Shown here one piece after another: positions 8,102-41,009 of a DNA stretch of 64,000 nucleotides; within the stretch, counting starts at the first letter, position 1, and each line of letters begins with the position of its first letter. Both the position numbers and the translations under genes were made by a program. The stretch covers positions 682,001 to 746,000 of the forward strand of contig CP142737.1 of assembly GCA_036630325.1 (NCBI GenBank). The letters are read 5' to 3'. The notes beneath the pieces are model-generated. The model was not told where the DNA came from and did no database searches. It was given only the letters and a program-made list of their open reading frames with translations. This DNA comes from Vairimorpha necatrix (lineage: Eukaryota).

Positions 8102-9310
8102 GGTTAAATTGCGATGTTACCCCCCACCCCTAAAAAAATAAAAAAAAAGGGGAAAAAATAAAAAAAAGGGGAAAAAATAAAAAAGGGGAAAACTAAAATT
8201 TATTCAATTAATTCAAAATCAAATCCAGGGGTTAAATCGTAATTTAAAAACCATATATTTTGAACTTCAAAAAAGCATAACATTCTTTCAAGTAGTGATT
8301 CTCTATAAATTAACTTAAAACGAGCTATATAAAGTTTTCGAATTAAATTCATTAAAGAACCATGGCTTGTTCCTTCTTTGCGCAATTCCCTTTTAATTAC
8401 AGACCACATTCCCTCAATTGTTTGGGTGTGGGCGCCTGTTGTTGGATTTACAAAATTTTGGCTATGATTTACTTTTAAATGTAAATAGTAATAATCCGGA
8501 CATAGTTCCGAAAACCCTTCATAACCTCGCCAACAATCAGTAATATTTGTAGATCCAGGTGCGATTTTTCGTTTTATTAATTCGACAAGAGTATTTCTTG
8601 ATCGATTTTCAACAATTTCGAAAAAAAAAGAATTGCTGTCTCCTCTTACAACTCCACCAACGGCCCAAACTTGGTATTGAAGGATTCTACCGTTATGGTT
8701 TTTACTTTTAACAAGCAATGTCTCGTCTATTTCAACTACGCAGTTTAAACCTCCTATGATTTTGTTTTTTATGTAGTTGAAATAGGATAAGAATACAGCG
8801 TTATTAAAACGCGTAAACCAGCGAGATACGGTACTACTATCTATATCCAATTCGATAGTAGCCGAAACATTGCTTACACCTTTAACCCATTCACACAGCA
8901 AAATTAAAAGATCTTCGATATCTAATCTAGAACTTTTAAAAATGCTTTCTTTGTAAATGTTACCCTTGTTTGAGCATTTTCTCCCATTTCGTCGTAAGTA
9001 ACAACGATATTTGTCCAAATTATTTCTAATTTTGGTCATGGGAGTCATGCACTTATTGCACATTGGTACCTTTAATATATTTTTTTCAAGAAGAAATAAT
9101 AATAATTCCTCTTTTTTATATATTAATTTTCTAAAATTCTTTATGTTCATTTTAGGGGTATAATTTTTCCTCTTTTTTTTTATTTTCCCCCTTTTTTTAT
9201 TTTTTTCCCCTTTTTTATTTTTTCCCCTTTTTTATTTTTTCCCCTTTTTTTTATTTTTTCCCCTTTTTTTTATTTTTTTAGGGGTGGGGGGGTAACATCG
9301 CAATTTAACC
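8102..9310 (-). mobile_element. Merlin (IS1016/IS1595-like) DNA transposon, apparently intact
   Basis: TIR ggttaaattgcgatgttacccccc / ggggggtaacatcgcaatttaacc; 8-bp TSD gacaaaat at 8094-8101 and 9311-9318; subterminal A-tract/GGGG minisatellites. Confidence 0.95.
8200..9150 (-). CDS. Merlin DDE transposase, 316 aa
   Basis: N-terminal Cys motif CNKC..C; VEIDET, ITDCWRGY, VNHSQNFV, HTQTIEGMWS; CCC motif before ATG. Confidence 0.93.
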   Translation of the reverse strand: MNIKNFRKLIYKKEELLLFLLEKNILKVPMCNKCMTPMTKIRNNLDKYRCYLRRNGRKCSNKGNIYKESIFKSSRLDIEDLLILLCEWVKGVSNVSATIELDIDSSTVSRWFTRFNNAVFLSYFNYIKNKIIGGLNCVVEIDETLLVKSKNHNGRILQYQVWAVGGVVRGDSNSFFFEIVENRSRNTLVELIKRKIAPGSTNITDCWRGYEGFSELCPDYYYLHLKVNHSQNFVNPTTGAHTQTIEGMWSVIKRELRKEGTSHGSLMNLIRKLYIARFKLIYRESLLERMLCFFEVQNIWFLNYDLTPGFDFELIE

Positions 9311-16621: not shown

Positions 16622-16814
16622 TTTTAAAGATAAAATACTTTGTTGCTTCTTATTTCATTTTATTCAATCTTCACTTTATGTTATACACTTAAAGACAATA
16701 TTAACATCTGTTTCTATTAAAATGCTCTGTATCTATCTGTGTTATTAATTTAAAATTTAGTTTAATAGACAAATACACATATGCCTGCATTTTTTATTAA
16801 TTCAAAATATGAGA

Positions 16815-18665
16815 TAAAATAAAAAATAAAAATGTTTATTGTAAAAAGACAGAATCAGCAAAACGAAGAAAAGCCACCAAGCCACCAAAAACTCCACCAA
16901 CCAGAAAAACATCAATAATTGCGTTTACACGCCAGCATACCTCAACGACCTCGCTTGTGGGAGAAAAATTTGTTCCCGTAAGTAACAGATCCTTAGTCAT
17001 TTCTGACTAAAAAAAAAAAAAAAAAAATTAAAATAAAATTATTTATTGTAAAAAGACAGAATCAGCAAAACGAAGAAAAGCCACCAAGCCACCAAGCCAC
17101 CAAAAACTCCACTAATAAAAAAAAAATCATCAATAAGTGCGCTTACACGCCAGCATACCTTAACGGCCTCGCTTGTAGGAGAAAAGTTTGTTCCCATAGG
17201 ATACATCCTTAGTCATAATATGACTAGAGACCCACTTTCATGGGTAAAAAATTAAAATTGTTTATTGTAAAAAAGACAGAATCAGCAAAACGAAGAAAAG
17301 TCACCAAGCCACCAAAAACTCCACCAACCAGAAAAACATCAATAATTGCGATTACGCGCCAGCATACCTCAACGGCCTTGCTTGTAGGAGAAAAATTTGT
17401 TCCCGTAGGTAACAGATCCTTAGTCATCTCTGACTACATATTTCGCGGACCTGACGAAAACACAACGCCTGGTTCAATACACCATTTAAGAACACGACTC
17501 AGTTCAGCGGAACAATACAGCTTCAGTATCATGCAGCATCTCCCAGGTTAAAAATATGAAGAATGACTCGAAAGTTAACGGTGTCCTTCTCGCCAGCAAT
17601 GGGTCTCCCACCCCTAGAGTATAGCTGGCCCTACTTACCAACCAGCAGCCGAAGGTTGGTAAGACTTAGAGATCTGCACCAAAAAATAAAAAAAATAAAA
17701 TTGTTTATTGTAAAAAAAAGACAGAATCAGCAAAACGAAGAAAAGCCTCCAAGCCACCAAAAACTCCACTAATAAAGAAAAAATCATCAATAAGTGCGCT
17801 TACACGCCAGCATACCATAACGGCCTCGCTTGTAGGAGAAAAGTTTGTTCCCATAGGATACATCCTTAGTCATAATATGACTAGAGACCCACTTTCATGG
17901 GTAAAAAATTAAAATTGTTTATTGTAAAAAAGACAGAATCAGCAAAACGAAGAAAAGTCACCAAGCCACCAAAAACTCCACCAACCAGAAAAACATCAAT
18001 AATTGCGATTACACGCCAGCATACCTCAACGGCCTTGCTTGTAGGAGAAAAATTTGTTCCCGTAGGTAACAGATCCTTAGTCATCTCTGACTACATATTT
18101 CGCGGACCTGACGAAAACACAACGCCTGGTTCAATACACCATTTAAGAACACGACTCAGTTCAGCGGAACAATACAGCTTCAGTATCATGCAGCATCTCC
18201 CAGGTTAAAAATATGAAGAATGACTCGAAAGTTAACGGTGTCCTTCTCGCCAGCAATGGGTCTCCCACCCCTAGAGTATAGCTGACCCTACTTACCAACC
18301 AGCAGCCGAAGGTTGGTAAGACTTAGAGATCTGCACCAAAAAATAAAAAAAATAAAATTGTTTATTGTAAAAAAAAGACAGAATCAGCAAAACGAAGAAA
18401 AGCCTCCAAGCCACCAAAAACTCCACTAATAAAGAAAAAATCATCAATAAGTGCGCTTACACGCCAGCATACCTTAACGGCCTCGCTTGTAGGAGAAAAG
18501 TTTGTTCCCATAGGATACATCCTTAGTCATAATATGACTAGAGACCCACTTTCATGGGTCTGATGAAAAACGAAAACGCCTGGCTCAATACACCATTTAA
18601 GAACACGACTCAGTTCAGCGGAACAATACAGCATCAGTATCATGCCCGACCTCTCCCAGGTCAAA
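16815..18665 (-). repeat. Tandem array of six units of two subtypes (A/B), includes a 657-bp higher-order repeat
   Basis: Units ~16815-17008, 17009-17244, 17245-17680, 17681-17901, 17902-18337, 18338-18665. Each begins on + with an A-tract then TGTTTATTGTAAAAAGACAGAATCAGC and ends at variable points. Confidence 0.95.
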
Positions 18666-19125
18666 TATATTTATTATATAAGTTTTCTTGTTAATAAATC
18701 AACGTCTCTTTCTTCTATTTCTAGATCTTCATTTTTTTAATTATTCTATATTAATTACCTTGTTTCGTTATCTCCTTAAGTTTCTTTTCAAATATAATTC
18801 TTCTAGAGACAACCATTCTATCTAAGAACTCTATAGTCCAACAAAGTTCTTTTATCTTATCTGGGTTATTTTTTAGTCCGATTTTATTACCAAGGAGTTG
18901 TTTGGTTTTTTCTCGGATATTTGTTTTTGAACAAGTCAGTAGAGGCAGTTTATTTTCAAAAGATGTTCTAATGTCAGTAAAACAGACGCACTCCAACAGA
19001 AAGTGTTCTAAATTTTCTTGTGGCCCATCACACAAAAAGCATTTGTTTCTATAACTCATTGTTGTGACATTCTCATGTCATTGTTTACTTTATATTTTTA
19101 TTATTAAATACCCCTTAACTTGGAT

Positions 19126-19755
19126 ATGTCTAACATGGTGGAGAATATTTCAAAACAAGACATAGTGAAGTTACTGGCTGATCTCACCATACAAATAACT
19201 GGTAAAGATCTGGAAGCCACTTTAAAAAAACTAGAAAGAAAGAAAGTTTTCAAATCCTTAACGGATGAAGAAAAAATTGAGGAAATTTTGGACAAAGCAG
19301 ATGTGGCTATAATCGAAGCCCATGAACGTTTAGAAAGGGATAAAAAACTAAGAAAGATTTCTTACGAAGCATGGAAGGAAATTATGTTTTCCATTTTTAA
19401 CAAAAAAATATCTAAAAGAGAATTCTTGAGAGAATTCCAGAAAAAGGAAGAAACCTGTCATGAATTTTTTATAAGGATGAGAAAATTGGGAGAGGCTATT
19501 ATTGATGATGATGAGCTTATATTAGAGATTAGTTACCTCGGATTGAGGAAGTTGAGAGAGGAGTGTGAACAAGCAACACTTAAGTTTAAAAAAATTGATG
19601 AAGAATTCCTAGATACTATAAGGAAAATGGAGGTAATTAAGAGAGAAGCTTATTTCAGAAGACTAAATACAAAACCAAGCGGCGCAACGAGAACAGACCA
19701 AAAAAGACAGCTGAATAACGTCGAACGGTCGATGAAATTATTAAAGAAAATTTAG
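19126..19755 (+). CDS. Gag-like protein; first ATG lies inside the 5' LTR
   Basis: ORF upstream of pol, QKKEETCHEFFIRMRKL gag-like motif; ATG at 19126 follows a CCCC motif. Confidence 0.8.
   Translation: MSNMVENISKQDIVKLLADLTIQITGKDLEATLKKLERKKVFKSLTDEEKIEEILDKADVAIIEAHERLERDKKLRKISYEAWKEIMFSIFNKKISKREFLREFQKKEETCHEFFIRMRKLGEAIIDDDELILEISYLGLRKLREECEQATLKFKKIDEEFLDTIRKMEVIKREAYFRRLNTKPSGATRTDQKRQLNNVERSMKLLKKI
19136..19146 (+). promoter_or_regulatory. Primer-binding site, probably tRNA-Ala
   Basis: TGGTGGAGAAT directly after the LTR is complementary to ...AUUCUCCACCA, the typical eukaryotic tRNA-Ala 3' end. Confidence 0.7.
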
Positions 19756-22346
19756 TTTATATCAAGGGTCTTCAGTTTAGGGCTATTTTTGATACAGGAT
19801 CGGAATATAGTTTTATAACAAAACCGATACAAGCACTCTTGCAGATTAGAGCATCTTTTTTGAAAACGCCGATAACTTTATACACCTGCCTATTAGAAGA
19901 GTTTACGATAGATAAATATGTGGAAATAGAATTTGAGCACAGCAAAGAACGCTACAAAGAGAAGTTTTATATTTTACCAAAGCGGAATGATAAGACGGTG
20001 ATAATAGGACGTAAATGGATGAGAACACCAAAGACCTTAAATCCTATCAGTGTAGTAACCGATTTTAATGAAGAAATAAATAAATTATGTGCGTGGAAGA
20101 ACGAAGGAATAAAGGGATTTGAATGTAATATAGATACTGAGGATGGTAAAAAGGTTGTAGATAAGTCATACCGAATACCCCAAGCATGGGAAGGGAAAAT
20201 TGAAAAAGAAATACAGAGATTATTATCCAACAACTATATTAGAGAATCTCACTCTACGTGGTTAAATAACGTTAGACCCGTCGAAAAAAAAGATGGAAGT
20301 ATAAGGCTTACAATAAATTTAATCAAACTGAACAAAATAGTGGCTCTAGATAGTTATACGCTACCAAGGATAGAAGAGCTTATTTACCGCCTGGGAAAAA
20401 GCAGATATTTTACTAAGATAGATTTGAAGGAGGCATTCTTTCAGGTAAAGCTAAAAGAGGACGACATGATGAAAACGGCTTTCAGGATAAAAAACAGGAC
20501 ATATGAATACACTAGGATGCCTATGGGGTTCAAGAACTCCCCAGCAATATTTCAAAGAATAGTTGATAAAGTTCTTAAGCAAGAAATTGGGAGATGTTGT
20601 TTCGCCTATGTGGATGATATTCTAATTTATACTGAAACAATTGAAGAGCATAAAAAGGCTGTGGGAAGAGTTTGTAAACTACTTAACAACGCAGGATTCT
20701 CAGCAAACAGGGAAAAAATGGAAATAATGAAAAAAGAGATAAATTTTTTAGGTCACAATATAACATATAATAAGATAACTCCATTGACAGATAATACTGA
20801 AGGTATAAAAAAATATACAACCCCGAGGAATGTAGATGAGGTACGAAAATTTTTAGGCATTGTTAATTATTACAGAAAATTTATAAAGGATTGCGCAGAG
20901 ATATGCTACCCACTAGTGATATTATTAAAAAAGAAACAACCGTTCATTTGGGAAAAAGAGCAAGAAACGGCATTTCAAACTTTGAAAGATGCATTAATAT
21001 CGGATTTATGCTTGTATCAACCTGACTTTACACGAGACTTTGTTTTAACAACAGACGCATCGAACACGGGATTAGGTGCCGTACTTAGCCAGGAAATAGA
21101 CGGGCAAGAAAGGCCAATTGCCTTCGCCTCAAGGCAATTACGGCAGGCTGAAGGAAATTATACGATCACAGAAAAGGAAATGTTAGCCACACTTTGGGCA
21201 ATGGAACATTTTAAATATTTCCTCCTCGGAAGGAAATTTACAATTTACACGGATCATAAGGCACTGGAAGCCTTAAACTGTAAGGGAGAGATAAATTCTC
21301 CTAGGATAATAAGATGGATAGAACGATTACAGATGTACGATTTTATAATACGATACAAAACACCTACCGATTTGGAGCACGTTGATGCTCTCTCGAGGCA
21401 TTACGGGACAATAAATGTTATTGAAGAAAAGGAAATTGTTGATATGATCATGAAGGTACACGAAAAATTAGTTCATAGAGGCGCAAAAGCTACTCATGAA
21501 CAAATAAATAAAGAACAATGTAATCAAAGTATAACACTAAAGAAGGTAGGAGATGTTTTAAAAAGATGTTATAAATGCAAAGAGTATAATCCGGCGAGAA
21601 TTAAAGGATTCAGGCATGTGGAAGCATTTGAACCCGGAGAAAAAGTCGCTTTTGACATCATAGGACCGATAGAAGATAGATTTATATTCACGGCTATAGA
21701 CTATTTCTCAAGATTCGCATTTGCAAAAGTATTCAAGACGAAAAGTAGTGATAACATATTGATGTTTTTGGAAATTGTACACAAAAAGGTGAATATACAG
21801 ACACTGATATCAGACGGCGCAAAAGAAAATATAAGTAAAAAGATACGAAATTGGTCATTAGAGAATAAAATAAGACAACATATTACCTCGCCCTACCATC
21901 ATTGTTCAAATGGTAGAATAGAGAGATTTAATAGAACTGTGGGCGAAGGAATAAATAAGCAGGATAAGAGCACCAGACTGTCTAAAAGAGTCGATAAGAT
22001 GATTAAGGCGTATAATTGTATAAGTCATAGAGCAACGGGGATGCCCCCAATAGAAGCATTAGATCTAGAAAATATCCCAGAAGTTAAAAGGAAACATTTT
22101 GAAAACCGAATAAATAGATACAAGAGTTTATTCAAGAAACCTAAATATAAAAAGTTAGAACTTAGAGATTTGTTCATTATACAAGACCATATACACAAAT
22201 ACAAAGGACAACCAAAGTTTGTAGGAACAGGAGAAGTTATAGGCATTTTGACTAACGATACATATGAAATCAATAGTAAAGGGAAAATAAGTAAAAGGCA
22301 CGCTACGCAGCTGAAAAAAATCGACGAAGACGATTATTTCTTATAG
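19720..22346 (+). CDS. Pol (PR-RT-RH-IN), uninterrupted, in the -1 frame relative to gag
   Basis: Frame is open from ~19720 with IFDTGS protease upstream of the listed ORF start; YVDDIL, TDASNTG, HEKLVHRG..CYKC, DYFSR, SDGAKE. Confidence 0.93.
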
Positions 22347-25300
22347 AGGGAGGGATGTTGTGACATTCTCATGTCATTGTTTACTTTATATTTTTATTAT
22401 TAAATACCCCTTAACTTGGATATGTCTAACACTCATTGGTATTCTTTTTGAATATGCTATTGCTGAGGACCACTTTACTAGATTACATCTCAATCTAGTA
22501 TATGTTCTAATTTTTCTATTGTTTATTTTGTTCATGACATATTTTATTTGTGAATTTCTTATGTCATATTGGTTTGCTATTGATGCAGCTAAAGAAGTAT
22601 TTAGAGTTCTTCGACTTCTTAGTACATCAATTATTTTTGTAGTGATAAATCTACTATCACTTGATTCATAATCGTTGCCGACAAATCGTTTTAACCATCT
22701 TTTGTTCTTGAACACCAGGAAGTTTTTCTTTCTTTCGGATTAATTGAAATTATATCCAATATGATTGTCTTATTGTGTTTCCACTTGTTGTATGCTCTAA
22801 ATCTACTTAGAGCTGCTTGTATATGAATTCGTTCGATACTGAACTCGTCCATTACTCTATCTAGTGGAACTAATACTCTTTTGAATATCATTCTGATAGA
22901 TTTTCTTAAGATCCTGTTAATCTTACCTGCTCTTGTACTTGACATTCCCCACAATTCACTGCCATACATTAATGTGGGTACTAGTACACATTTTATTAAG
23001 ATCGCCTTGAAGTAGAGATTGATGCTGCTATTCATCAACTTGGGCATCACTGCGTCTAAGGCTTTCTTGCCACGCATTGCTGCGTCTTTGACCAAGTGTT
23101 CTTCTAGCGTGTTTCTTTTAATTAAGACACCTAGATATCTGTATTCAGTGACTTCCTCAATCACACCAAAGTCTGTACTGAGAGAATACAAACTTCGGAA
23201 TTCTTGTATGTTAGAATGAGCATTCCATTCTAATATTCCGCTTTTTGTGCAGTTAATCTTCATTCTGTTATTAACCGCCCAATTAGAAATTCTATTGATC
23301 TTATTATTAAGATCATCAATGTTGTTTCCGAAGACAACAATATCATCTGCGAACATCAGTCCCGGAACTCTAGTATTTGGTCTTGGGATCAAAACTCCTT
23401 CTCTGCCGTCAAAAATATCATTGATGAATATATTGAATAGCATTGGAGAACAAGGGCACCCTTGTCTCACTCCTTTTTTGTAGCTATAACCACTTGACGT
23501 GTCACCACCAATTTTCACACGCATGGTGGTATATTTATAAATATCCTTTATTGTATTGATTAAATACAATGGGATATTAAGTTTTGTAAGCTTCTCAAAT
23601 AATAAGTCATGACTTACATTATCATAAGCTTTTTCAAAGTCAATGAAACACATTATTGTGTTCAGGCCTCCGAATTCTCTTCTTCTCACTATTTCTAGTA
23701 AAGATGTAATCTGATTCATACACTCTTCACCTGCTCGGAATCCTGCTTGGTATCTAGAGAGTATATCTTGTTCTTCGACAAATTGAGTTAACCTGTCATT
23801 TATTATCTTGAGATAGATCTTACTAATTGTGTTAATTAAAGAGATTCCCCTATAATTATTCAGATCTGTCTCATCTCCTTTTTTGTGAAGGCAAATTATG
23901 TTTGCCATGCTCCAATATTCAGGAGTACTATTTCCACAAATATATTTATTAAATTCATGTAGCACGAATTTAAAGAATTTATCTTCTACTGCTCTAGTCA
24001 GTAAGTGTTTGTATAGCTCGGTTGGAATCTCATCAGGACCGGCTGCTTTGTTATTTCCACATTTCTTCAGTGCGGATAGAAATTCTTCATCTGTTATCTC
24101 TGGGGGAAGATCAACAAGATCTACTTTATCATAGACATTGACATCTATATCATTCTCTGACGCCAATTCGGCGTAAAATTTATTCGCTATTTCTAGCTTT
24201 TTTGCTCGGCAAGTCTGAAGAAGCTTATTGTGGTCAATTAGAGCCACTTGATCCAAACGAATGGAAACACTTCTATTTTTCAGCCATTGCAGAATTCTCG
24301 GGATCTGTTACTTTTAAAGAGCTTTATTCCTCTTAAAGCCCAAAGTTTCGATCTATCTTTGCGAATCAACTTTTTAGTTTCGTCAACTCTCTTTTTGAGA
24401 TATTCGAATCTAATTGAGTTGATTTCATTGTAATTTTTCATAACAGCTCTTGCTGCTAGACGTTTTTCTTTGAAGACTTTTAAATATCTCCATCTCATTG
24501 TAAGTCCAGTATGGACTCTTCTCTTTTTGTAAATCTTCAAAGATGTACAAACTTTTTGAATAATCTCAGGAAGATTATTCATGTTTAATTGTTGATTACA
24601 CAACTTCTTTTTAAGCTTTTTAATCACTTTTGGATTTTCCAGCATCTTCTTATCATAAACTAGTTGATCTGAGATCTTATCAACGGCAAGTTTAATTTTT
24701 CTTTTGAGCACTAAGTGATCACTTAATACCCAAGACTTGGATATAATGATCTTCTCATTATCATTACTTTTTAGTCGAAAGATGGTATCAGTTTTCCTCT
24801 TAGATCTTTTACCATCTTTGAGGATCCTTGTACCATCGTTGCTGTTATATTTTATTGTAACTGGCAAACCAACTACATTTAGTTTTTTCTTGAGACTAGA
24901 ACTCTGCATATTCATATCTCCCATCACTATGATCTCACTATAGTTATTTCTGAAATTCTCTTTTTCTAAGAGAAATAATAATCTGGCCAAGACTTCTCTC
25001 TTGAGATCCTTGTCTTGTGGTACGTAGACATTTAAGATTAGATACTTAATCCAATTGCCTGCTGACCTAAACTCAACTTCAGTTTGCAGAATATTTGAGT
25101 CGGTGCCTTTTTTGGAACATCTGATTGCTCCATTATTTCTAACCAGAGTTATTAATCCTGGTTTATTTTTCCCACCACTAGGTGTTTCAACTGTAGCGTA
25201 TTTTTCAAGTTTCAAAGGTCTTGTAGATTGTCTCCAAGTTTCTTGTAAACACAAAATTTCTGGTTTCTCCTTCTTAAGAAAAAACTCAAGTTCTTCTCTC

Positions 25301-28300
25301 TTATTAGAGAGATGATTAATGTTTAGACTTAAGAGTTTTATGTTATCTTTATTCTTTTTATTTACTTTACTAGATTTCATTAGTTCTTTTCTATTATCAT
25401 TTAAACTTTAAAGCCTTTAGCTTCAACTGTCTTAATCAATAAATTTGCGTATAGTTTTTCAACTATTATTTTTGTAAAAGAAGTGTCTCTTCGTCTATAC
25501 TTTCTTGCTGTAATGATGGAATTCTCCAAGGAGAGTTCTTCTTACATAAGTCTTTAAGGAGATCTTTCACTCCATAAGGAATTCTTTGTATCTTGACAAT
25601 ACAATATTGTTCTTGTACTTTCTTCCACCACATATTCTTTCTAATAGAAAAATATTTGAGACTATTTAGTCTTGTTGGCGTTTTAAAAGTATTTTTAATC
25701 TGATTAAATCCAATTGAATTATGAATTTTTTTATTTAAAGATTTAAAAATAGATTTTCTGTTATAAGAAAATAGTTTCCTATAATAGCAGGACTTTAGTA
25801 AAGATACATTATTCATTATTAAAGTCCTTGGATTCTCGGGCAGGCTCACCCATCATATTTTCTAAATAAATGAAAGATTCATGGTTTGGTTTTTCTTTAT
25901 TTAATTCTTTAGTTATGTACCTACATGCTTTCACAAGTGGTACAAACTTTTTATGTGTTCCGGAGAGTCTCAGTAGTTCTCCTAGAACAATTTATTTATT
26001 AGAAGATAAGAATCCAGCGAAGAATTCTTCATCATCGCAGATGTCGGAACCTACAAATCTTTATTTAATTTTTTTAAGTACCTTTTGGCACACGTTTTCT
26101 CTAATCATCATGAGTACTACTTCTGACTCTTTAAATTGTTTTATAAGAGTGATATCTTTGCTTTGCACTTCCATCATCGCTGCCCAGGCATCTCTAGATT
26201 GGGGTTTCCCGTCCAAACCGAGTCCAGACACAAGAGCTAACTTGAACTTGCATTTAGAGATGTATCTACCACCCTTAATAATTTTCATGAGAGCTTCGTC
26301 TGATAGCCCCTCAGCCCAGTTTTTCTTTGGTAAAACTGAGCTTCCCCTTTTCTGAGATTTCTCACCTTTTTTGTTCTCCATTTTGGGGGTATAATTTTTT
26401 TTACGATTTTGTAATCTTTCTTTTTTCATGATCTTTTTTAGGAATGATAAATTTTCTCCTTAAAACTTCATAAATAGTATTTTTGGGCACTTTTAAATTG
26501 CCACTAGTTTCTACTTCAAGTGATTTAAATCTATTAAAGTTGGTTTTATTTGTGGTTTTACCACTTCTGTTTTTCTTCAAGTCTATCTGGACTTTGGGCT
26601 TGAATGTGTGTTTGACAGATGTCCATCCGTCTTCATTTGTATGGTAAAGTTTTACTCCATTCTTAGGAGCTTTTCTTTTACCAGCTATAATAGCAGAGAT
26701 AGTTGACAGATGTCTAACTACTGCTTTTTACTTAAAAGAAGCTATATCTAGCTTAACATCTTTTGTTTTAATATTTTTATTAATTATAGTATTTGTAGAT
26801 GTCTTTGAAACATCTATACATTTTCATTTGCCATCTTCGGACAATCGATCTTCTTCTTCTACTTTGACAGTAGAGTCGATGTTTTTGACATTAATCAAAA
26901 AATCTTCCTTTATAATTTCTAATTTAGAAATATCATTATTTCCAGTAGCTAACTGAAAAGTTTCGCTACTGGTATCATTTGGAACATCGGAGTTATTATC
27001 CTTTTGTTCTACACATTCTTTTGAGTGATTCTCAATCATTATGTGGTATAATGGATCATACCACATGATTGTTAAAAACCAATAAATACTTAAACGCTGA
27101 TGCTTCTTCGGAACGATCAGTTATGGTCGACTATTATTGGTCAGCCAAATCTTATTTCTTCCTATTGGTTACCATGTATATAAATAAAGAAATTCCATGA
27201 ACAAACATGGTACAACTACAAACACTCTTCCTTCTACAAATCAGATAAATAAAACTCTTTCCATAACAATAAACAATCCTTTCACTCTAACTCTTTTAAC
27301 TCCGGTTTTCACGGCTCCCCAAACCGTAGCATCATTGAATGCTTTCTTTCTACAGGCAAGCTCCCCGGTAAACACGCCACATTATCTCAATTTTATTTTT
27401 TGATGCTTCAGTAATTTGATCACTGTCATCCATCAGATTATTTTTAATAAAATTTTTTAGTTTGATGTTTAGTCTTTCTAGCTCGTCATGGAAGAGCTCT
27501 GTTGTACCTCCTGCGGAAGTACAACTCCAATAAAGATAAGTTAAACCTATAATGTTTATTTCTTATATCTTCCATACCCCTAAGTATGGAATTTTCTTTT
27601 ATATTTTTTTATTGTTTATTTACAGGGCAAACAAATCAAGAAATGTCAAAAATGATATGTTTGACATGTGGGGTACCACATCCTACCCTCTTCTTTTAAT
27701 GTCTTTTATGTGGATCCAATTTCCTCCTTCGTTCACTCTGGCCCAGATTCCCTTGTTTCCAATTTCTTTGATTGTGTGTGGTCCTTTATACTGTTCATCC
27801 ATCTTACCTGCGTTGAATTCTTTAATAAATACTTTTTCGTTTATTTGTAATTTTTTATCATTATTAAGGTTTGGTATAATGGGAGTTGTTTTATTTTTAG
27901 GCTCTTTGTTGGTGGTTTGCCTTTTGAATGGGTCAAAGAAACTGTATTTTTTCTCCAGTTCGAATGGTGAGCATCCGATTTTTCTTTTATAATTGACGTT
28001 TAGCTTGATGTTGATTTTATTTGTTGTTTCTCTGATGTTATTAGATCTATTCATTCTTAAGCACTCAGCTATTATGCTGTTTTGTCTTTCGGCCATTCCG
28101 TTACTTTGTGGATGATATATTGGGGTGTTTATAAGTTTAATTCCCCTACAGTTTCCGTATTTTTCTTTTAGTTTTTTGCCTGTGAATTGAGTGCCGTTGT
28201 CCATGATAATTTTTTCCGGCTGTTGGAATTCTTGTATCCATTTATCTATACATTTTATTATGGTATCTTCCGTGATGTTTTACAGTAGGTATACCCTTGA

Positions 28301-28797
28301 GACTCTTGAATAGACATCTGTTATGGACAGATAATATGCCTTGTGATGAATATCTTCATAAATGAAGTTTTCGAGTTCAAATGGTCCAAATATGTCCATT
28401 GCAACCGTTCCGTACATTTTATCGGAGGTTATTTGTAATTTCTGAATTTTTACTTTTTCTTTCTTGTTTAGGTTGCATATTTTGCAGTTTTTTGTTACAT
28501 TAATTATCTTGCTTTTTATTCCGTTGATGCTGTAAAAGGGAGATAAATTTTTGTTCAATACGACTATTCCTGGGTGACCAGCAATTTCATGTATCTTTTT
28601 TAGAAAGTTTTCGGATTCGGAGTTTTTAATTATTATTTTATCATCTTTGTTCTTTTTCCAGTTTTTTGTCCCAGATTTATTTTCAGATATTTTCTCTGCA
28701 TATAAGTCTATTGTATTTATTAGATCGTTTTCGTACTTAGCTTTTTCTGTTCTGAAACATCTTGATAGATGATCTGCTACGGTGTTGTCTTCATTAG

Positions 28798-31700
28798 TGT
28801 GATGACTTTTATTAATGAATGTGAAACATCATCACATTAATCATTTAGTTTATAATATTTTCTCAAACTAAATGTCATTCATTTGTTTGTTTGTTTACAA
28901 ACAATTAAATATTTAAAATATTTAAAAATAGCCCCTCACCAAAAAAAAAAAGGATGATGAACCATAAAAATAATAAATCTCAAAATAGTAAAAATAACAT
29001 GTACAAACAACAATTAAATAATCTCATTGAGACGTACCTCCGCTTGGGGTACGTCAAGTTGAATTCAACGAGTGAAATCCCAAGCAAGGTGAAACTGTCG
29101 AAATACCAAGGGAAGCAGGCAGAAAAACTAAAAGGAAAATATATTACATTTGAAACCAAAATAGAAGGTTTAGAACAAAGGTTCACTACAGACATCTATT
29201 ACATTGAAGATATACGGTCAATAGATATTATAGAATGGTTAAAAGAGATCGAGAAAATCTCAGAAGAAAACCAATGGAATTCTAAACAGCTCATGATGGT
29301 AATTAGGAAAATGAGTAAAGACTCATTGATCGAGCAAGAGAGGATAGTGGAAGATTTTTTCTCCACACGCGATTATCTGATCGGTCTTAGATTTCCGATA
29401 GAACATAGCAGAAGCATATTAACAGAACTAGCTTCTATTAAACAATTAAGCTATGAAACCATCCAAGAATACATCCAAGAAATTAAAGAACTAGTTAACA
29501 TTTATGCCGTAATAAATAAACTCTCAAAAACAGAGTTCAATAGACGAGTAGAAGAGACTTTTTACAATGGACTTGGTCCATATACAGATGGAGAGCTTTT
29601 CAAGCATGATTTTAAAGACTATAAAGATGCAATTAGATTTCTTTACACGTTAGAAAAGAAAATAGTATCTAAACAAGTAATACTAGAGAAGAAAGTTTTA
29701 GATCCTATAAGGAAAGAACCCTATAAAGGGACTTTAGAGGTAGTAAGCAATAACAAGTGGTGCAAATACCACAAGAAGAATGATCACGATTCAAAGGATT
29801 GCGAGACTTACCAGAAATTTATAAACGAAAAAATTAAGAATAGGGATGAAAAACAGAAAGGAGAGACTAGGAACTTGATTATTAGCGAGAAAGGAATAAA
29901 TACTAAAACACCCGAACTACAAGGGGTAATTAAAAAATACCAAACGTCATTTTTTATGGACTCGGGAGCTTCAAGGAACTTCATAAAAAGAGAAGTTGCC
30001 CTTAAGCTAAAAATACCTATCGTCGAGGATTCTCCAATAACTATAAAATACGGAAATGATGACATGGAAGAGTGTACTGAGACAGTTAATGAGGAAATTA
30101 AAATAATAGGAGCTAAGTCAAGCCACGTAGTTAAATTTTACTTACTGAATAACTTACCAGTCGAATTTGTATTAGGAAACGAATTTCTTAGTAGTAACGA
30201 AGTAATAATGAATTATAAGAATCAGACTATAATAATCAACGGTGATGTGATCAGTACAAAGAACCAAGAAGACAGTGAATCAGACATCGAAGATTTAGAT
30301 AAAATTTTAATTGAAAGCCTGTGTCTGTCTTTAGAAAATCTTAATAACGACGAATTAAAACGTTATATTTATTCATATGTAAAAACCAATTCTTCTTATA
30401 AACAAATAAAAATAGCACCGATAGAAATAAGGATGAGACAAGACATTAAAACACCTAAACCAAAATTCTACAGTGTTCCACATAAACATACAGTCGGAGC
30501 TAAACGAGAACTACGAAGGTTACTAGAAAATGATATAATCGAACTCTCAGATTCGCCATATGCCAGCCCGGCATTTTTAATAGAAAAAAAGAATAAAGAT
30601 TTGAGACTGGTGGTCGATTATAGAGAAATAAACGAATATGTCATAGATGAGGTTGCGGCAATACCCAATATAACAGAAAATATTATGCAAATGGGAAGCG
30701 CTAAATGGTATACAAAAATCGATCTGAAGAACGGTTTCAACCAACTATACATAAAACCCGAAAGTCGGAAATTTACGGCGTTTACATTATTGGGAAGACA
30801 ATACCAATACAAAAGGGTCCCATTTGGAATTCGTTCAGGACCTTAAATTTTTCAAAAAACAATCATCAAAATACTAGAAGACATAGATAATATATTTGTT
30901 TACATTGATGATATAATAGCCTTTTCACCAGACCTTAAAAGTCATATAAAAACCGTGTCAAAAATTTTAAGAAGACTCAAAAGTTATGAAGTAGCAATAA
31001 ATTTTGAAAAAAGCGAGTTTTTTACTAATAATACCACGATACTAGGAAACGTGATTTGTGAAAATACTATGAAACCAGAACTAACGAGCATTCAGAAATT
31101 GTTAGCACTCAGAAACCCTAAATCAAAAAAGGAGCTGCAAAGAATAATTGGCATAATGAACTGGTACAGACCTTATGTTTCTAACTTGAGTGATAAAATT
31201 GCGAACATTACAGAACTGCTTAAGAACACAAATACAGGAATACTTTGGACTGACAAACACAAAGATATAGTAGCGCAAATCGCAGTTGATATTAGTAAAG
31301 CTACACTTAAGTTACCAGACTACACGAAGAAATTTGTTATACAGTGCGACGCTTCGAATAATGGCATAGGAGGTGTACTCTTTCAAGAAGGAGGAATACT
31401 TGGATACTACAGCAAAAGCTAAACAGTACCGAAAAGAACTATTCAATAGTCGAAAAGGAATTATTTGCTATTATTAAGACGTTAAATCATTTCAGAAATA
31501 TCATATTAGGTTACTATGTAGAGGTATCTACTGATAATAAAAACTGTTTACTACCGAACAAGCAAATATCTAGCAGGATTGAAAGGTGGAAGTTAATATT
31601 GAACCAGTTCAATATCAAAATAACGTCCATATCTGGCACAAAGAACGTAATAGCTGACAGCTTATCTAGAAATTTGATATTAACGACAAGTCAAGAAGTT

Positions 31701-33016
31701 ATAGACAAAACGAGATACTTAAATGAACTTAATCAGTTCGTTATGAAAACAAAAGAAACCCCCAATATTTGGGCTAAAGACAAGAAAAACAGAATAATAA
31801 TAGATAATGATCAGTCAAGGAATTTTTTGGATTATATGCATCGAAGAACTATACACGTTGGATCTACAATTCTTTACAATAATATTAAGCATATATTCAA
31901 AGTTACAGGTGTAAAAAAGTTAATTAAAGAAATTACAAGTAACTGTATCAATTGCATCAGAACGAAAAATAATAAGAAAAAAAACCGATCTTATAATAGT
32001 ATTGTAGCCTCTGCACCATTCGAAAAGATATCGAGTGACATCTATGGACCATTTAGTCTAGAGAACTACATACATAACGGTACATGTCATAAGGGATATT
32101 ATATCACTATTATAGACGTATATACGAGAACGCTAAGAGTATACTTTACATATAAGGTTACAGCGGAGCGTATAATTACATGTATTAAAGACTGGATAGA
32201 AGTTTATGGAAGGCCTAAGACCTTTATATCTGATAATGGAACTCAATATGATTCAGAGAAGTTAATTAAATATTGTGCAGAGCACGAAATACAAAAGATA
32301 GCAACTCCTATATATCACCCAAGTAGTAATGGTATCAGTGAGAGGCTGAACCAAACAATCACGCAATGCCTCAGGTTATATAAAGGTAGAAATCTGAAAT
32401 CAGTATCAGAAGGAATCCACATAAGACATAACCACAACTATAATACTGCACTTAAAGTATCTCCAACTACCTTTTTAATAGGACACAGTCCATATGATCC
32501 TTTCGGGATTAAAAGTGATAAATTACAAACTAGCTGTAGAGAAAATACCGAGAAGTCGGGCGGAAATAGGAAGTCCCCAGTTTTCAAAATAGGTCAACAA
32601 GTTTTCGTGAGAAACTTTAAAGCAAAGAAATTAGATGATCAATATTTAGGACCGGTGACAGTAACTAACGCAGGAAAGAAAGGAAAGTGGTATAAGTTAG
32701 AGGGATTTGAAAATGAAATACATGAAGATGACATCAAATTCGGCGGAGTGGGCAGGATGTGATGACTTTTATTAATGAATGTGAAACATCATCACATTAA
32801 TCATTTAGTTTATAATATTTTCTCAAACTAAATGTCATTCATTTGTTTGTTTGTTTACAAACAATTAAATATTTAAAATATTTAAAAATAGCCCCTCACC
32901 AAAAAAAAAAAGGATGATGAACCATAAAAATAATAAATCTCAAAATAGTAAAAATAACATGTACAAACAACAATTAAATAATCTCATTGAGACGTACCTC
33001 CGCTTGGGGTACGTCA
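28798..33016 (+). mobile_element. Ty3/gypsy LTR retrotransposon nested in the 27500-35822 element
   Basis: Identical 259-bp LTRs 28798-29056 and 32758-33016 (TG..CA); TSD attag 28793-28797 and 33017-33021; PPT ggagtgggcagga. Confidence 0.97.
28954..32762 (+). pseudogene. Gag-Pol of the 28798-33016 element
   Basis: WCKYHKKNDHDSKDC, MDSGA, VDYREIN, YIDD, QCDASNNG, HRRTIHVG..CINC, SDNGTQY; in-frame TAA 30844-30846 and frameshift ~31420. Confidence 0.93.
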
Positions 33017-35869
33017 ATTAGCTATTTGTTTTATACTGTAGTTGTATTCTAGCATCATCGCGTCCCATCTTTCTATTCTTCTGCTTATTTTGCTTTTAAA
33101 AAGGCAGTTCCTATTATCCGTGTGTATTTCTACATAATTTCCAAGTATAATGTTTCTACATTTGTCCATTGCGTAGACTATCGCGAAGTATTCTTTCTCT
33201 ACTATTGTGTAGTTTCTTTCTGTTTTATTGAACTTCATGCTTATATTTAGTATTATTCCGTGTTCCTGTGATAATACTGCTCCCATTCCGAGTTCTGAGG
33301 CGTCGCAGTGTAGTGTAAATTTTTTGCTATAGTCTGGTAGTACTAGGTAGCTTTTATTTTTTAGTTTGTCTATTAGCTTATTTATCGTTGAATTGTCTTC
33401 TTTAGTTAGTTTAACTATCTGTTCTTTCCCTTTTAGTTTTTCTGTTAAATTTAAAATTTCTAAGCTTAAATTTGGGATGTATTTCCTATACCAATTGAAT
33501 ATTCCTATTATTTTCTGTAGGTCTTTTTTGGTTTTACATTTCATGTTTTCGATTAGTTTACTGTCTTTAGTGAGAGGGTACATTTTACCGTTAAAGATTC
33601 TTGTTCCTAGAATTTCTGTGTCTTTGGTGCAGAATTCTGATTTAGCGAAGTTTACAATTACGTTGTGCTTCTGTAGCCTTGTAAATAATTCTTTGAGTGT
33701 GTTCAGATGAGACTCGTAGTCCTTCGTGGCTATAATTATGTCGTCTATGTATACCGATATATTTTTGATTCCGAAGAGTATTTTGGTTCATTGTTTTCTG
33801 GAATGCTTTGGGGCCATTTTTTAATCCGAAAGGGAGTCTTTTGTATCTGAATGTTTTGCCGAATATAGAGAATGCTGTCCATTTCCTGCTTTCTTCTGTT
33901 AGGAGTAATTGGTTAAATCCATTCGTCAGGTCCAATTTGCTTATTACTTCGCTTTTTCCGATTTGATAAATGATATCGTCCATCTTTGGAATTATTTCTA
34001 CTTCGTCTTCGATAAAGTTATTAATTTCTCTGTAGTCTATTACTAGTCTTATCTTGCCGTTTTTCTTTTTCTTAAAGAATGCGGGGCTGGTGTTCCTTTC
34101 GTTGCATTCCTCGATTATATTAGAGTCCAATAGTCGTTCTATTTCTAGTATTGCGTCTTCTTTGTAGTTTGAAGGTACTGCATAATTAATTTTCTTAAGC
34201 TTTATGTTGTTTTTAGACACTTGTAATTTGACTTGATCTGTGTTTATTGGGTCGCTTTCTTTAATTTTGCTTTTATAGTCATCTATGATTTTATGTAATC
34301 TTGCTTCATCTTTTGTAATGAGTGTTTTCTCAAAAGGTTTTTGGAATTCTGTTTCTTCTTGATTAGTTTTCATACTCATGGTTGAGTTGTTCCAAATTAT
34401 TTTCCTTCTTGTAAAGTCAAGTATAATTTCATTTCTCGATATAAAGTCTCTGCCAAGTAATATATTAACCGGTAAGTTTTGTAATAGATATAATTCTATT
34501 TTACATGTTTCGTTTTTCCCCTTCGGCTGTAATTCTAATTCTATTAACGTACTGGTGGTTTCGTTTGATTTATTTCCAAACATTACCTGGATCTCTTTAC
34601 TTTCTCTGGTGGTAAGATTCCATTGTTCTACGAGGTCTGCTTTGATGAAGTTTAATCCTGCTCCACAGTCTAGAGTTCCTGTTGACTCGTGTTTCTTATT
34701 GATTATGAGTGGAATGTCGAGTTGTTCGACAATAGTAGGATTTTCTAAAATAACGTAGTTTAAAGAGTTTTTATTTTCTCTGGGTTCTGAAATCTTCCTC
34801 GTTGTATTCTTTAGGTTCAAGTTGGTATCGGGAGCTACTGTCTTCTTGTTGAGGTTAAATTTTTCGTTTTTAACTTTGCTAATATTTGATCGATTTGTTT
34901 CGTTGCTTTGCCCGCAATCTCTCGTTGTATGTCCCAGAGTTTTGTGGACTTTACACCACTTTTTCATGAATCTTATACTTGAGATGTTGTTTATCTTCCT
35001 CGGTATGTTAAATCTTGTTATGATGTTTTCTTCCATTCTTTTCAGGGCTAATATGATTTCAAGTGGTGTTTCGAGGTTTTGTATCTCAAGATATCTTACC
35101 GTTTCTAAGTTAAGTCCTCTGTAAATGGATTCCTTTGATCTTCGTTCGTATTCTTTCTGGCTGCAATTAGATACCTTACTGTAGATGGTTACTCGTTTCA
35201 TGATTTCGTTTATGTAGTTATCAAAGAAAATGTAGTCAGTTTGTTTTAGATTATCCAGTTCTACTATTAAGTTCTCGACTCTCTTCTGTGAGAACACCTG
35301 TGAAATGATGTAGTTCTTGTTTTCTTCGTAGTTATCTTTCAAATTGGCTTTGTCTATAATCTGATCTTCAATGAGATCGAATAAAAATAGCTTTTTTGTC
35401 TCTTCGTTCCATTGATTCCTTTGGAAAATTTCTTCAATTTTCTTAAACCATCCTAGTAGATCGATTTCGTAGATATCGTCAATCATTTCTACATTTTTGG
35501 TGATTCCTAGGTCCACTTCACCTGTCTTAATTCTTATAGAGACTACTTTTGCTTCTTGAGTTTTAGAATTGTGTCCTGCGATTTCTTTTCCTCGCGTGGG
35601 TTGGAGTTCATGATGTTTGTACTCTCTTATTGAATTCAATCTGTCGTACCTCCTGCGGAAGTACAACTCCAATAAAGATAAGTTAAACCTATAATGTTTA
35701 TTTCTTATATCTTCCATACCCCTAAGTATGGAATTTTCTTTTATAATTTTTTATTGTTTATTTACAGGGCAAACAAATCAAGAAATGTCAAAAATGATAT
35801 GTTTGACATGTGAGATACCACAAGCTCCAAATATGTCTGCTGAATCAATACTAATTCAGTAGTGCTGGA

Positions 35870-37152
35870 TAAAAAAATAAAATAAAATAAAATTGTTTAT
35901 TGTAAAAAAAAGACAGAATCAGCAAAACGAACAAAAGCTTCCAAGCCACCAAAAACTCCACTAATAAAGAAAAAATCATCAATAAGTGCGCTTACACGCC
36001 AGCATACCTTAACGGCCTCGCTTGTAGGAGAAAAGTTTGTTCCCATAGGATACATCCTTAGTCATAATATGACTAGAGACCCACTTTCATGGGTCTGATG
36101 AAAAACGAAAACGCCTGGCTCAATACACCATTTAAGAACACGACTCAGTTCAGCGGAACAATACAGCATCAGTATCATGCCCGACCTCTCCCAGGTCAAA
36201 AGGTTGGTAAGACTTAGAAATTTGCACCTAAAAAAAAATTAAAATTAAAATTGTTTATTGTAAAAAAGACAGAATCAGCAAAACGAAGAAAAGCCACCAA
36301 GCCACCAAAAACTCCACCAACCAGAAAAACATCAATAATTGCGATTACACGCCAGCATACCTCAACGGCCTCGCTTGTAGGAGAAAAATTTGTTCCCGTA
36401 GGTAACAGAACCTTAGTCATCTCTGACTACAAATTTCGCGGACCTGACGAAAACACAACGCCTGGTTCAATACACCATTTAAGAACACGACTCAGTTCAG
36501 CGGAACAATACAGCTTCAGTATCATGCCCAACCTCTCCCAGGTTAAAAATATGAAGAATTACTCGAAAGTTAACGGTGTCCTTCTCACCAGCAATGGGTC
36601 TCCCACCCCTAGAGTATAGCTAAAAAAAAAATAAAAAAATAAAATTGTTTATTGTAAAAAAAAGACAGAATCAGCAAAACGAAGAAAAGCCTCCAAGCCA
36701 CCAAAAACTCCACCAACCAGAAAAACATCAATAATTGCGATTACACGCCAGCATACCTCAACGGCCTCGCTTGTAGGAGAAAAATTTGTTCCCGTAGGTA
36801 ACAGATCCTTAGTCATCTCTGACTACATATTTCGCGGACCTGACGAAAACACAACGCCTGGTTCAATACACCATTTAAGAACACGACTCAGTTCAGCGGA
36901 ACAATACAGCTTCAGTATCATGCCCAACCTCTCCCAGGTTAAAAATATGAAGAAATACTCGAAAGTTAACGGTGTTCTTCTCACCAGCAATGGGTCTCCC
37001 ACCCCTAGAGTATAGCTGACCCTACTTACCAACCAGCAGCCGAAGGTTGGTAAGACTTAGAGATCTGCACCAAAAAAAAAAAAATAAAATTGTTTATTGT
37101 AAAAAAGACAGAATCAGCAAAACGAAGAAAAGCCACCAAGCCACCAAAAACT
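35870..37152 (-). repeat. Tandem array of four units, rDNA-proximal part of the same repeat family
   Basis: Units ~35870-36228, 36229-36621, 36622-37071 and 37072-37152, near-identical to the 16815-18665 units. Confidence 0.95.
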
Positions 37153-37154
37153 TT

Positions 37155-37250
37155 AGAGATCTGCACCTAGTTAAAAAACATCGGTCCCACCCTCCGCGAC
37201 GTGGACGCTCTCTTATAGTATACAACACCTACTATGCATACAAAAAAAGC
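37155..37250 (-). ncRNA. Putative HDV/CPEB3-like self-cleaving ribozyme at the LSU rRNA 3' end
   Basis: P1 GCUUUUU/GGAGGGU, P2 AGAGA/UCUCU, P3 GCG/CGC, L3 UCCACGU, P1.1 CC/GG, P4 ACC..GUU-UUUU-AAC..GGU, J4/2 G-C-A-G-A; every element is in canonical order. Confidence 0.8.
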
Positions 37251-37471
37251 AGTAACCTCAAAATGTCGGCATACACCTTCATTCTTACAGTTCTGCTTAA
37301 AAGAGTAGCATTCTCCTATATATATCTTTGAGCTACGCTTCAGGCTTAAGAGGCTTTCAGCCTTAATCGAAACGACGTAGCTAAGCAACATAACTTAATA
37401 GTTAATCGCACTACCAGTGGTCATCACTTAGAGTTCCTCTCGTACTATCAAAGTTCACTCAAAAATACTTA

Positions 37472-38079: not shown

Positions 38080-38132
<53 letters not shown>

Positions 38133-39762: not shown

Positions 39763-41009
39763 TTATGATCCTGCTAATGGTTCTCCAACAGCAACCATGT
39801 TACGACTTATATCAGATCTAATACATATTGTTCAAGTAGTTTTCACTAATTTCACAACACATATCATCTTAGATAGCGACGGGCGGTGTGTACAAAGAAC
39901 AGGGACACATTCAATTCTACTTATTTAATAAAATTTACTAGCAATTCCAAGTTCAAATATCTCTTACAAAATATTATCCCATAAAGATTATATATCTATT
40001 GTATTGCGCGTGCAGCCCAAAATGTCTGAGGGCATAACGGACCTGTTTTAATCCTTTCCTTCCTACACTGATTGTGTCTGTCTATTAATAAAAGGGTCTC
40101 ACGTCTTGTTGAAATTAATCAAAACTTCACAGCATCCATTGAAAACGGCCATGCACCACTATTATCATTCTCAGATTATATATCTTCTCTGAATAATAAA
40201 ATATTGGTAAGTTACCTCGCGTTGAGTCAAATTAAGCCGCACAATCCACTCCTTGTGGTATTCTTCCGTCAATTTCTTTAATTTTCAATCTTGCGATCAT
40301 ACTATCCCCAGAGCCAAAAAACTCAAATTTCTATCATCTAATACAATTAATATCATATCACATCGTCGGCATAGTTTACTGCTGGAACTACAATGGTATC
40401 TAATCATCTTCGCTCCTCCAGCTTACGTCCTTGTTCAAAAAATACATACAAGTGTACAGCTTTCGCTTCTGTTCGTCCAGTCAGGGTCGTCACATTTCAT
40501 CTCTCTCCCAACTATACAGTACACCTCATATTGCTTCTTAAATATAAACTACGGACTTTTTAACTGCATCAATCATCATACACACTCTTGGAACAAGTAT
40601 TACCGCGGCTGCTGGCACTTGATTTGCCCTCCAATTAATCACCTCATATACTTTTACAATATGAAACAATAGAATATTACTTCCCATAACTGCCTCAGAT
40701 AAAATCCATAGGTCAAGTTTCGCCCCTGCTGCAATCCTTAGACTTAGTAGCCGTCTCTCAGGCTCCTTCTCCGGAATATTACAAAGTAATACCGTTACCC
40801 GTCATTGCCTTGTTAAGCCATTACCTTAACAACTAGCTGATAGGTCTCACTCTTACTGTATATGTCTTATGCTACACTTTAACGCAGCTATACTAATTTA
40901 ATACATTAAATAAAATGAGTATTACTGAGCAGTCCATTTTTCCATATCAAAAACATGCATGGGTTAATCTTAAGGAATAGCGTCTACGTCAGGCAGAATC
41001 AACCTGGTG
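39763..41009 (-). rRNA. Small-subunit rRNA (~1247 nt), Vairimorpha/Nosema-type
   Basis: Starts CACCAGGTTGATTCTGCCTGACG; contains GTGCCAGCAGCCGCGGTAA, GTACACACCGCCCGTCG, AAGTCGTAACATGG; ends GCAGGATCATAA. Confidence 0.99.

Follow-up and report, generated by a model that had tools for sequence, protein, structure and literature searches.

A probable HDV-like ribozyme family of rDNA-spacer repeats in a microsporidian: a core without P1 downstream of the large-subunit rRNA gene, and intact copies in relatives

Does a self-cleaving RNA make the 3' end of a eukaryotic ribosomal RNA (rRNA)? The question is raised by a stretch of 64,000 nucleotides (nt) from Vairimorpha necatrix (assembly GCA_036630325.1, contig CP142737.1, positions 682,001 to 746,000; called the window here, and numbered from its own first letter), in which a reading of the letters alone, the sequence-only reading in what follows, had placed a ribozyme resembling that of hepatitis delta virus (HDV) at the 3' end of the large-subunit (LSU) rRNA, with the first pairing strand (P1) drawn from LSU sequence and with a cut between 37251 and 37250 that would itself create the LSU 3' end. 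We consider it probable that positions 37213-37155, on the minus strand, hold the core of a true HDV-like ribozyme, one of a family that belongs to the repeats in ribosomal DNA (rDNA) spacers, that P1 is intact in relatives and deleted here, and that the P1 proposed by the sequence-only reading is a match by chance. As judged from the sequence, the copy in the window has most likely been reduced to an inactive relic, because 44 nt that include P1 have been lost between direct repeats.

The nested double pseudoknot of the HDV family follows the order P1, P2, P3, L3, P3', P1', P1.1, P4, J4/2 and P2', as set out in PMC4908430, and in the window every part from P2 through P2' can be found in the sequence, with the exception of P1. 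The parts are as follows:

37155-37213, minus strand: HDV-like ribozyme core without P1, recognised by strand order and by a descriptor that leaves P1 out
37213-37209, minus strand: P2, AGAGA
37208-37206, minus strand: P3, GCG
37205-37199, minus strand: L3, UCCACGU
37198-37196, minus strand: P3', CGC
37195-37189, minus strand: P1', GGAGGGU
37188-37187, minus strand: P1.1, GG, with partners C37204 and C37203 in L3
37185-37165, minus strand: P4, followed by G37164
From 37163, minus strand: J4/2, C37163-A-G-A, with the putative catalytic C37163, directly before P2'
37159-37155, minus strand: P2', UCUCU
37235-37230 and 37220-37215, minus strand: hairpin AUAGUA/UACUAU upstream of the core

All the letters that the sequence-only reading had quoted are present at the minus-strand coordinates it gave them, and the double-pseudoknot order that it described holds from P2 through P2'. 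At the level of sequence the cytosine of a CNRA-type J4/2 is also in place, as are the two cytosines at positions 2-3 of L3 that would form P1.1 with G37188 and G37187. The descriptor without P1 was composed of a P2 of 5 base pairs (bp), a P3 of 3 Watson-Crick bp, an L3 of the form U-Y-C-N(1-2)-Y-G-N, a P1' with U as its last base, two P1.1 pairs, a P4 of 3 bp or more, C-N-R-A and P2'; its L3 and CNRA patterns are those of the family consensus. When both strands of the window were scanned, it matched once, at 37213-37155, and it matched in none of 300 dinucleotide shuffles. A rough analytic estimate gives about 0.004 chance matches per window, or one window in 250, which alone is not decisive across the approximately 250,000 windows scanned. 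The string GCGTCCACGTCGC occurs once in the window against 0.01 expected, and CGCGGAGGGTGGGACC has a single occurrence as well. The P3-L3 string presumably differs by one base from that of the CPEB3 ribozyme, as the sequence-only reading proposed; a search of the literature for the CPEB3 string gave no paper.

The P1 that is missing from the window was found in relatives. Logan contigs of four public runs were aligned to 37050-37450, the relatives being runs X1 and X2; the RNA run X15 gave no contigs, and the LSU contig of the RNA run X18 ends at 37284, short of the ribozyme. Before the letters of any contig were read, the true P1 had been predicted from P1' as (G/A)CCCUCC, and the relatives' contigs indeed carry a perfect P1 of 7 bp, GCCCUCC or ACCCUCC, 3 bases before P2, with the core otherwise the same. 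X2 record 12 (429 nt, depth 53.1) follows the LSU from a point past 37450 as far as 37205, with 4 substitutions and one gap, continues with 34 letters that are not in the window, then with 37214-37153 in identical form, and finally with the body of the spacer repeat, into which the remnants in the window lead as well (see below), so that its core is conserved at 100% over 62 nt between flanks that differ. Written in rRNA sense, the 34 extra letters end in ACCCUCCAC. This contig contains the 10-nt string AAGAGAGCGT twice, once on the segment matching 37153-37214 and once on that matching 37205-37450, and the 34 nt between the two carry the true P1. In the window one copy is left:

37205-37214, minus strand: AAGAGAGCGT, the lone remaining 10-nt direct repeat, which is the deletion junction

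Compared with X2 record 12, the window is without 34 + 10 = 44 nt between the 10-nt direct repeats, P1 included.

Other contigs carry the motif in other surroundings. A joint in X1 that runs from 37214 to 37083 (depth 1491.7) has GCCCUCCAC between the T-rich end of a unit (...TTTTATT) and 37214, which is the form starting with G (G1) at a repeat boundary. In four X1 contigs and X2 record 13 (depth 3), ACCCUCC(A)C is preceded by another sequence, one that resembles the interior of a repeat unit, and in record 13, again at a depth of 3, P4 is replaced by a GC-rich hairpin. A loose end in X1 joins a T-rich tract at 37193 and is a copy truncated inside P1'. The duplex with P1' comes to -12.3 kcal/mol for GCCCUCC and to -12.0 kcal/mol for ACCCUCC, as opposed to -2.6 kcal/mol for the GCUUUUU of the sequence-only reading, and the G/A variation at the first position keeps the pair with U37189. 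By our own arithmetic, a 7-mer complement would be met by chance within 0-5 nt of P2 with a probability of about 7e-4. The intact ribozyme has a length of about 69 nt, and a J1/2 of 3 nt is compatible with activity of HDV-like ribozymes according to PMC4908430.

Whether the proposed cut could define the LSU 3' end depends on where that end lies. The eukaryote LSU model was uninformative on this point (its global match reaches to 37108, its local alignment stops at 37314, and 238 model positions are skipped), and for this reason the archaeal model was chosen, whose positions 2797-2987, out of 2987, could be matched to 37400-37224 (43.1 bits, E 3.1e-11). The features concerned are these:

37247-37298, minus strand: terminal LSU helix (H101-like), AAGCAG at 37298-37293 with CUGCUU at 37252-37247, predicted from the archaeal LSU model and standard pairs
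37224-37246, minus strand: predicted LSU 3' tail, with the closing-helix strand GUAU at 37241-37238, followed by a tail that reaches the model end at 37224
37244-37250, minus strand: GCUUUUU, the P1 of the sequence-only reading, judged a non-functional chance complement

By homology the mature LSU 3' end is predicted at 37224, to within a few nt. For the hairpin 37300-37225 the folding energy is -19.9 kcal/mol; a search with RNAduplex between the 5' region of the LSU and its 3' tail returned one long meaningless duplex. A cut at 37251/37250 would interrupt the 3' strand of the terminal LSU helix, with LSU homology continuing to 37224, and as a maker of the LSU 3' end it would remove about 26 nt of the LSU, among them the conserved strand of the closing helix. 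Of the claim that a ribozyme sits at the LSU 3' end, the location stands, in that the core follows directly downstream of a microsporidian LSU gene, but the cut that was to define the end does not.

The P1 that was proposed together with this cut does not rise above chance either. Its duplex with GGAGGGU contains five G.U among its seven pairs and has an energy of -2.6 kcal/mol; the sequence-only reading had itself cautioned that such a P1 may be weak. For 29% of all positions in this T-rich window, a heptamer that can pair with GGAGGGU, if G.U counts as a pair, starts no more than 39 nt upstream. GCUUUUU itself is found three times in the 1000 nt upstream of P2 (at 38198, 37606 and 37250), and the last 1 kb of the LSU holds 11 candidate heptamers, among which it ties for weakest; eight of the 11, for example ACTCTCT at 38110 and ACTCTTT at 37306, pair more strongly. 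A full descriptor, which called for a P1 of 7 bp with at most 2 G.U within 60 nt, returned no ribozyme in the window, and CCCTCCAC has no match anywhere in it. A stable P1 of about 6-7 bp, whose first nucleotide is the cleavage site, is a mark of the HDV-like family, and it is missing from the window. We regard the proposed P1 as a chance complement because its duplex is so weak, because the heptamer recurs and because it is sequestered in the LSU helix.

Downstream of the core the window continues with repeats. Array homology begins exactly at 37152, right after the ribozyme, and the arrays and the short ribozyme strings found in them are listed here:

35871-37152, minus strand: spacer repeat array A, four units with start-to-start distances of 443, 396 and 356 nt, each with a T-rich end
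37056-37071, minus strand: GGTGCAGATCTCTAAG, the last 16 nt of the ribozyme (3' strand of P4, J4/2 and P2') joined to a T-run at the head of a unit
36228-36213, minus strand: copy of GGTGCAGATCTCTAAG with 2 mismatches
16814-18670, minus strand: spacer-type repeat array B, with no adjoining rRNA gene and 19 kb away
18337-18322 and 17680-17665, minus strand: exact copies of GGTGCAGATCTCTAAG in array B

With up to 3 mismatches allowed, GGTGCAGATCTCTAAG has five matches in the window (including that at 37167 within the ribozyme), against 0.24 expected, and none of 100 shuffles reached five. On this sequence evidence the copies of GGTGCAGATCTCTAAG on the repeat units are 5'-truncated remnants of the ribozyme, and all copies in the window appear to be 5'-truncated in one way or another. 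These remnants head repeat units, which makes the ribozyme a constituent of the spacer repeats. In the relatives' contigs, in fact, the ribozyme heads spacer repeats of about 0.4-0.5 kb, of which the window's repeats keep the last 16 nt only. Three distinct 5' limits were seen, each after a T-rich tract, namely the full G1 copy, 37193 and GGTGCAG. In an alignment of six sequences that compared the ribozyme with the interior of the repeat unit, similarity was convincing only from 37152 downstream. No open reading frame (ORF) of at least 150 amino acids (aa) was found in 35871-37152. The RNA of a unit shows no unusual degree of structure (z = +0.71), 77 of 100 shuffled sequences folding equally well.

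Some further features of the units may be recorded here. A perfect 10-bp hairpin (CTTACCAACC ... GGTTGGTAAG) comes right after the remnant, at 37020-37055, 18286-18321 and 17629-17664 on the minus strand, and it is followed in the units by a second, GC-rich hairpin (in the GGGTC...GACCC region); no Rfam match was found here. The units end in ACAATAAACAATTTTATT and a T-run of variable length (37081-37110 and equivalents), and X1 contigs add 2 or 4 bases at 37071. The AATAAA-plus-T-rich unit end could be a termination or release signal.

How an intact copy would work can be outlined from the known members of the family. Its 7-nt P1 (GCCCUCC or ACCCUCC) would pair perfectly with P1' GGAGGGU, and the RNA, as we infer from the family's established chemistry, would self-cleave as it is transcribed, on the 5' side of the first base of P1, so that the upstream RNA would end in a 2',3'-cyclic phosphate and the spacer RNA headed by the ribozyme would begin with a 5'-hydroxyl. 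In rDNA units of the X2 type, if ribozyme and rRNA are co-transcribed, the cut would sever the pre-rRNA from the read-through spacer RNA; in X2 record 12 it would fall about 44 nt past the model LSU end at 37224. In tandem spacer units it would come immediately behind the T-rich tract that closes the unit before. Since the LSU 3' region and an intact copy are linked on a single X2 contig, cleavage by a ribozyme within the 3' external spacer is a live possibility for that lineage.

Several other explanations have to be weighed against this one. That the window's copy is itself active, with the LSU's GCUUUUU (37250-37244) as P1, a J1/2 of 30 nt and a cut at 37251/37250 creating the LSU 3' end, seems to us scarcely credible. 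All seven positions do pair if five G.U are allowed; according to PMC3774820, ribozymes of R2 elements use upstream 28S sequence as P1 across P1-P1' gaps of 23 to more than 700 nt; and J1/2 could form the AUAGUA/UACUAU hairpin, structured J1/2 domains being activators of large HDV-like ribozymes (PMC4908430). However, the -2.6 kcal/mol of this duplex compares with about -12 kcal/mol in the intact relatives, G37250-U37247 are paired within the terminal LSU helix of the -19.9 kcal/mol hairpin, the cut would cost the LSU its conserved closing-helix strand, the same heptamer also lies at 38198 and 37606 with most of the candidates stronger, and the relatives have a proper P1 beside P2 in exactly the part that the window's copy has lost. 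Very improbable, too, is that the core was never a ribozyme and is plain spacer sequence that happens to fit the HDV pattern. The lack of a match to any Rfam HDV family would agree with this, as would the shortness of P4 and P2 and the very large number of windows in which a loose descriptor was free to match once in 250. On the other hand, a P1 predicted from P1' was then met in three contexts, as a fully complementary 7-mer at the expected distance and with a G/A change that preserves pairing, the core without P1 was absent from all 300 shuffles, and it is unchanged over its 62 nt in X2 record 12, between diverged flanks.

Which party would profit from an active ribozyme is a matter on which two further readings differ. 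The ribozyme could be the 5' end of a non-autonomous retroelement, similar to a short interspersed element (SINE) or a SIDE or analogous to a retrozyme but of HDV type, that sits in arrays by the rDNA and is freed from read-through transcripts, with any effect on rRNA incidental; we hold this possible, if on the whole rather unlikely. Eukaryotic HDV-like ribozymes are found mainly at the 5' ends of retrotransposons that lack long terminal repeats (LTR), as described in PMC4908430 and PMC7761336, the variable 5' limits after T-rich tracts resemble the 5' truncation of target-primed reverse transcription, arrays also occur away from the rRNA gene (array B), and the window's non-LTR element, with its endonuclease at 24280-25380 and its reverse transcriptase (RT) at 22691-23908, could supply the enzymes. 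Yet a BLAST comparison of the repeat units with that element (22691-25380) and with all else in the 19-35 kb region found no similarity, our own descriptors found no HDV-like ribozyme upstream of it, and nowhere within the window does the ribozyme stand at the 5' end of an RT-encoding element; the units are without a long ORF, end T-rich and not A-rich, and give RNA of ordinary structure; and the truncation point that three of the window's units share fits unequal crossing-over equally well. No tRNA gene was found in the window, and a tRNA-derived SINE origin of the units is thus without support. Contig depth also bears on the matter, crude as it is, in that the X2 contig joining the LSU to an intact ribozyme has a uniform depth of 53.1, compared with 3 for the other context, which would suggest mostly rDNA-linked copies.

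The same depths would favour a reading centred on the host, which we regard as unlikely though worth stating in full. Every functional rDNA unit would then carry an intact ribozyme about 44 nt past the LSU, and self-cleavage would be the primary cut in the 3' external transcribed spacer (3'-ETS), replacing the protein-made cut of RNase III type on which other eukaryotes rely and perhaps feeding RNA polymerase I (Pol I) termination; the repeats and their ribozyme remnants would be duplicated terminator modules, and the window's unit, amid transposons and without P1, a decaying copy. In yeast, the processing signal of the 3'-ETS is a stem-loop for Rnt1. A signal of this class cuts a few tens of nt beyond the mature LSU end, and the place of the predicted cut in X2, at about +44, would fit. 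The sequence-only reading had itself named an element-borne ribozyme as the outcome that would speak against its proposal, and this is in part what emerged: at least three other contexts were seen in X1 and X2, and a 3' remnant lies on repeats 19 kb away, along with the copy that does follow the LSU gene.

The explanation that we favour, a genuine HDV-like family of rDNA-spacer repeats that has lost its P1 in the window, has to be held against a number of observations that weigh on the other side. No HDV-type family of Rfam (HDV, CPEB3, drz and others) matched at E<=10, either in 36900-37400 or in the whole window, and the P4 of the window's copy is weak (3+3 bp with a U-rich loop) and its P2 has only 5 bp. 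A search of public collections with a 22-nt core gave no match in genome_contigs, none in viral_contigs and one in a metagenome that was judged to be chance. The intact form was read from one contig alignment that gave at most 30-34 letters per contig end, among the pieces listed. The compensatory change that can be seen, a one-sided G/A at the first position together with an exchanged P4 in a single contig of depth 3, amounts to minimal covariation. The runs are not from the same strain as the window, to judge from 37309 and 37319, where all contigs differ from it, and in the organism of the window the loss of the 44 nt might have become fixed, or be compensated for. The LSU end at 37224, finally, was predicted with an archaeal model whose score is modest. 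The metagenome match (L001, 770-791) lies in a 1555-nt high-GC contig of bacterial character that has no Rfam match. Other ribozyme families were likewise absent from the window at E<=10 in Rfam.

Comparison with known systems helps to place the favoured family. The R2 5' ribozyme, as described by Eickbush and Eickbush (PMC3774820), has a P1 of 6-7 bp, a P2 of at least 5 bp and a highly variable P4. Like the ribozyme proposed here, R2 has an HDV-type double pseudoknot in an rRNA co-transcript that frees element RNA from LSU sequence, and its P1 may be LSU sequence (same source). R2, however, occupies a fixed position within the 28S gene and codes for RT, whereas the present ribozyme follows the LSU and stands at the head of non-coding repeats, about 0.4-0.5 kb long, for which no similarity to the window's non-LTR element was found; the window's copy, moreover, is without P1. 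With the HDV and CPEB3 ribozymes it shares the strand order, a P3 of 3 bp made of GC pairs only, a 7-nt L3 that starts with U and holds the partners of P1.1, a P1' ending in U, a cytosine in J4/2 and, in the intact form, a length of about 69 nt; it differs from them in having no match to an Rfam model and in residing in an rDNA spacer instead of a viral genome or an intron.

Theta ribozymes are reportedly HDV-like ribozymes of minimal size that are joined to phage tRNAs at the 3' end. The likeness, which the sequence-only reading had pointed out, a ribozyme just 3' of a stable RNA that is trimmed by the ribozyme's own 5' cut, could apply to intact units of the X2 type. Theta abuts the mature end, however, and here the cut would lie about 44 nt downstream, so that further trimming would be needed; the host here is also a eukaryote, the transcript presumably one of Pol I, and the ribozyme of full size with a P4. 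Retrozymes and satellite hammerheads are tandem repeats that bear ribozymes and give unit-length or circular RNAs, as stated in PMC7761336. The present units resemble them as non-coding tandem units of a few hundred nt, with at least one X1 joint in which a self-cleaving motif stands at the unit boundary. They differ in that the ribozyme is HDV-like and not a hammerhead, that the window's units hold 16-nt remnants only, and that the RNA of the unit is not strongly structured.

As for its genomic setting, the window holds a single microsporidian rDNA unit on the minus strand, with the small-subunit (SSU) rRNA at 39763-41009 (Rfam SSU_rRNA_microsporidia, 1052.8 bits) and the LSU of the same unit running downstream from 39648 (Rfam LSU_rRNA_eukarya, 1340.2 bits). 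The unit is solitary amid transposon genes, in transposon-rich DNA with no tandem array of rDNA around it. Between the repeat arrays and the rDNA, from 19126 to 35717, gypsy-type LTR retrotransposon ORFs (protease, RT, RNase H and integrase) are dense on both strands. The mobile elements are these:

33642-35717, 28954-30846, 31743-32762 and 20019-22346: gypsy-type protease/RT/integrase ORFs
22691-25380, minus strand: non-LTR retrotransposon, with an Exo_endo_phos endonuclease ORF at 24280-25380 and an RVT_1 (RT) ORF at 22691-23908
8200-9150: IS1595/Merlin-like DDE transposase

In the 3' region of its LSU the window has C at 37309 and T at 37319, where all aligned contigs of X1, X2 and X18 have T and A, respectively, and it also differs from most aligned contigs at 37322; X2 shows a further difference from the window at 37236 and is one T shorter at 37242. 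The solitary rDNA unit of the window may have diverged or be in decay, or it may come from another strain or species than the runs.

With regard to novelty, a literature search whose matches were judged by title found no HDV-like or self-cleaving ribozyme in microsporidia or Nosema, and, the titles being on R2, reviews and bacteria, it found no HDV-like ribozyme in a eukaryotic 3' external spacer; the work on R2 and on retrozymes was all that bore on the subject. The fold is known; what is new, as far as the literature was searched, is a microsporidian member that comes directly after the LSU gene and heads spacer repeats. For the window itself the outcome is a correction, as what it holds appears to be a relic without P1, and the cut site that had been proposed lies inside the rRNA. 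HDV-like ribozymes are widespread, and few of them have a testable role. If the repeats turned out to be a selfish tandem repeat instead, they would be the HDV-type counterpart of hammerhead retrozymes. Microsporidia are known for a stripped-down ribosome biogenesis, and should intact copies cleave the Pol I transcript shortly beyond the LSU, a step of eukaryotic ribosome biogenesis that is otherwise driven by protein would in these organisms be carried out by a catalytic RNA.

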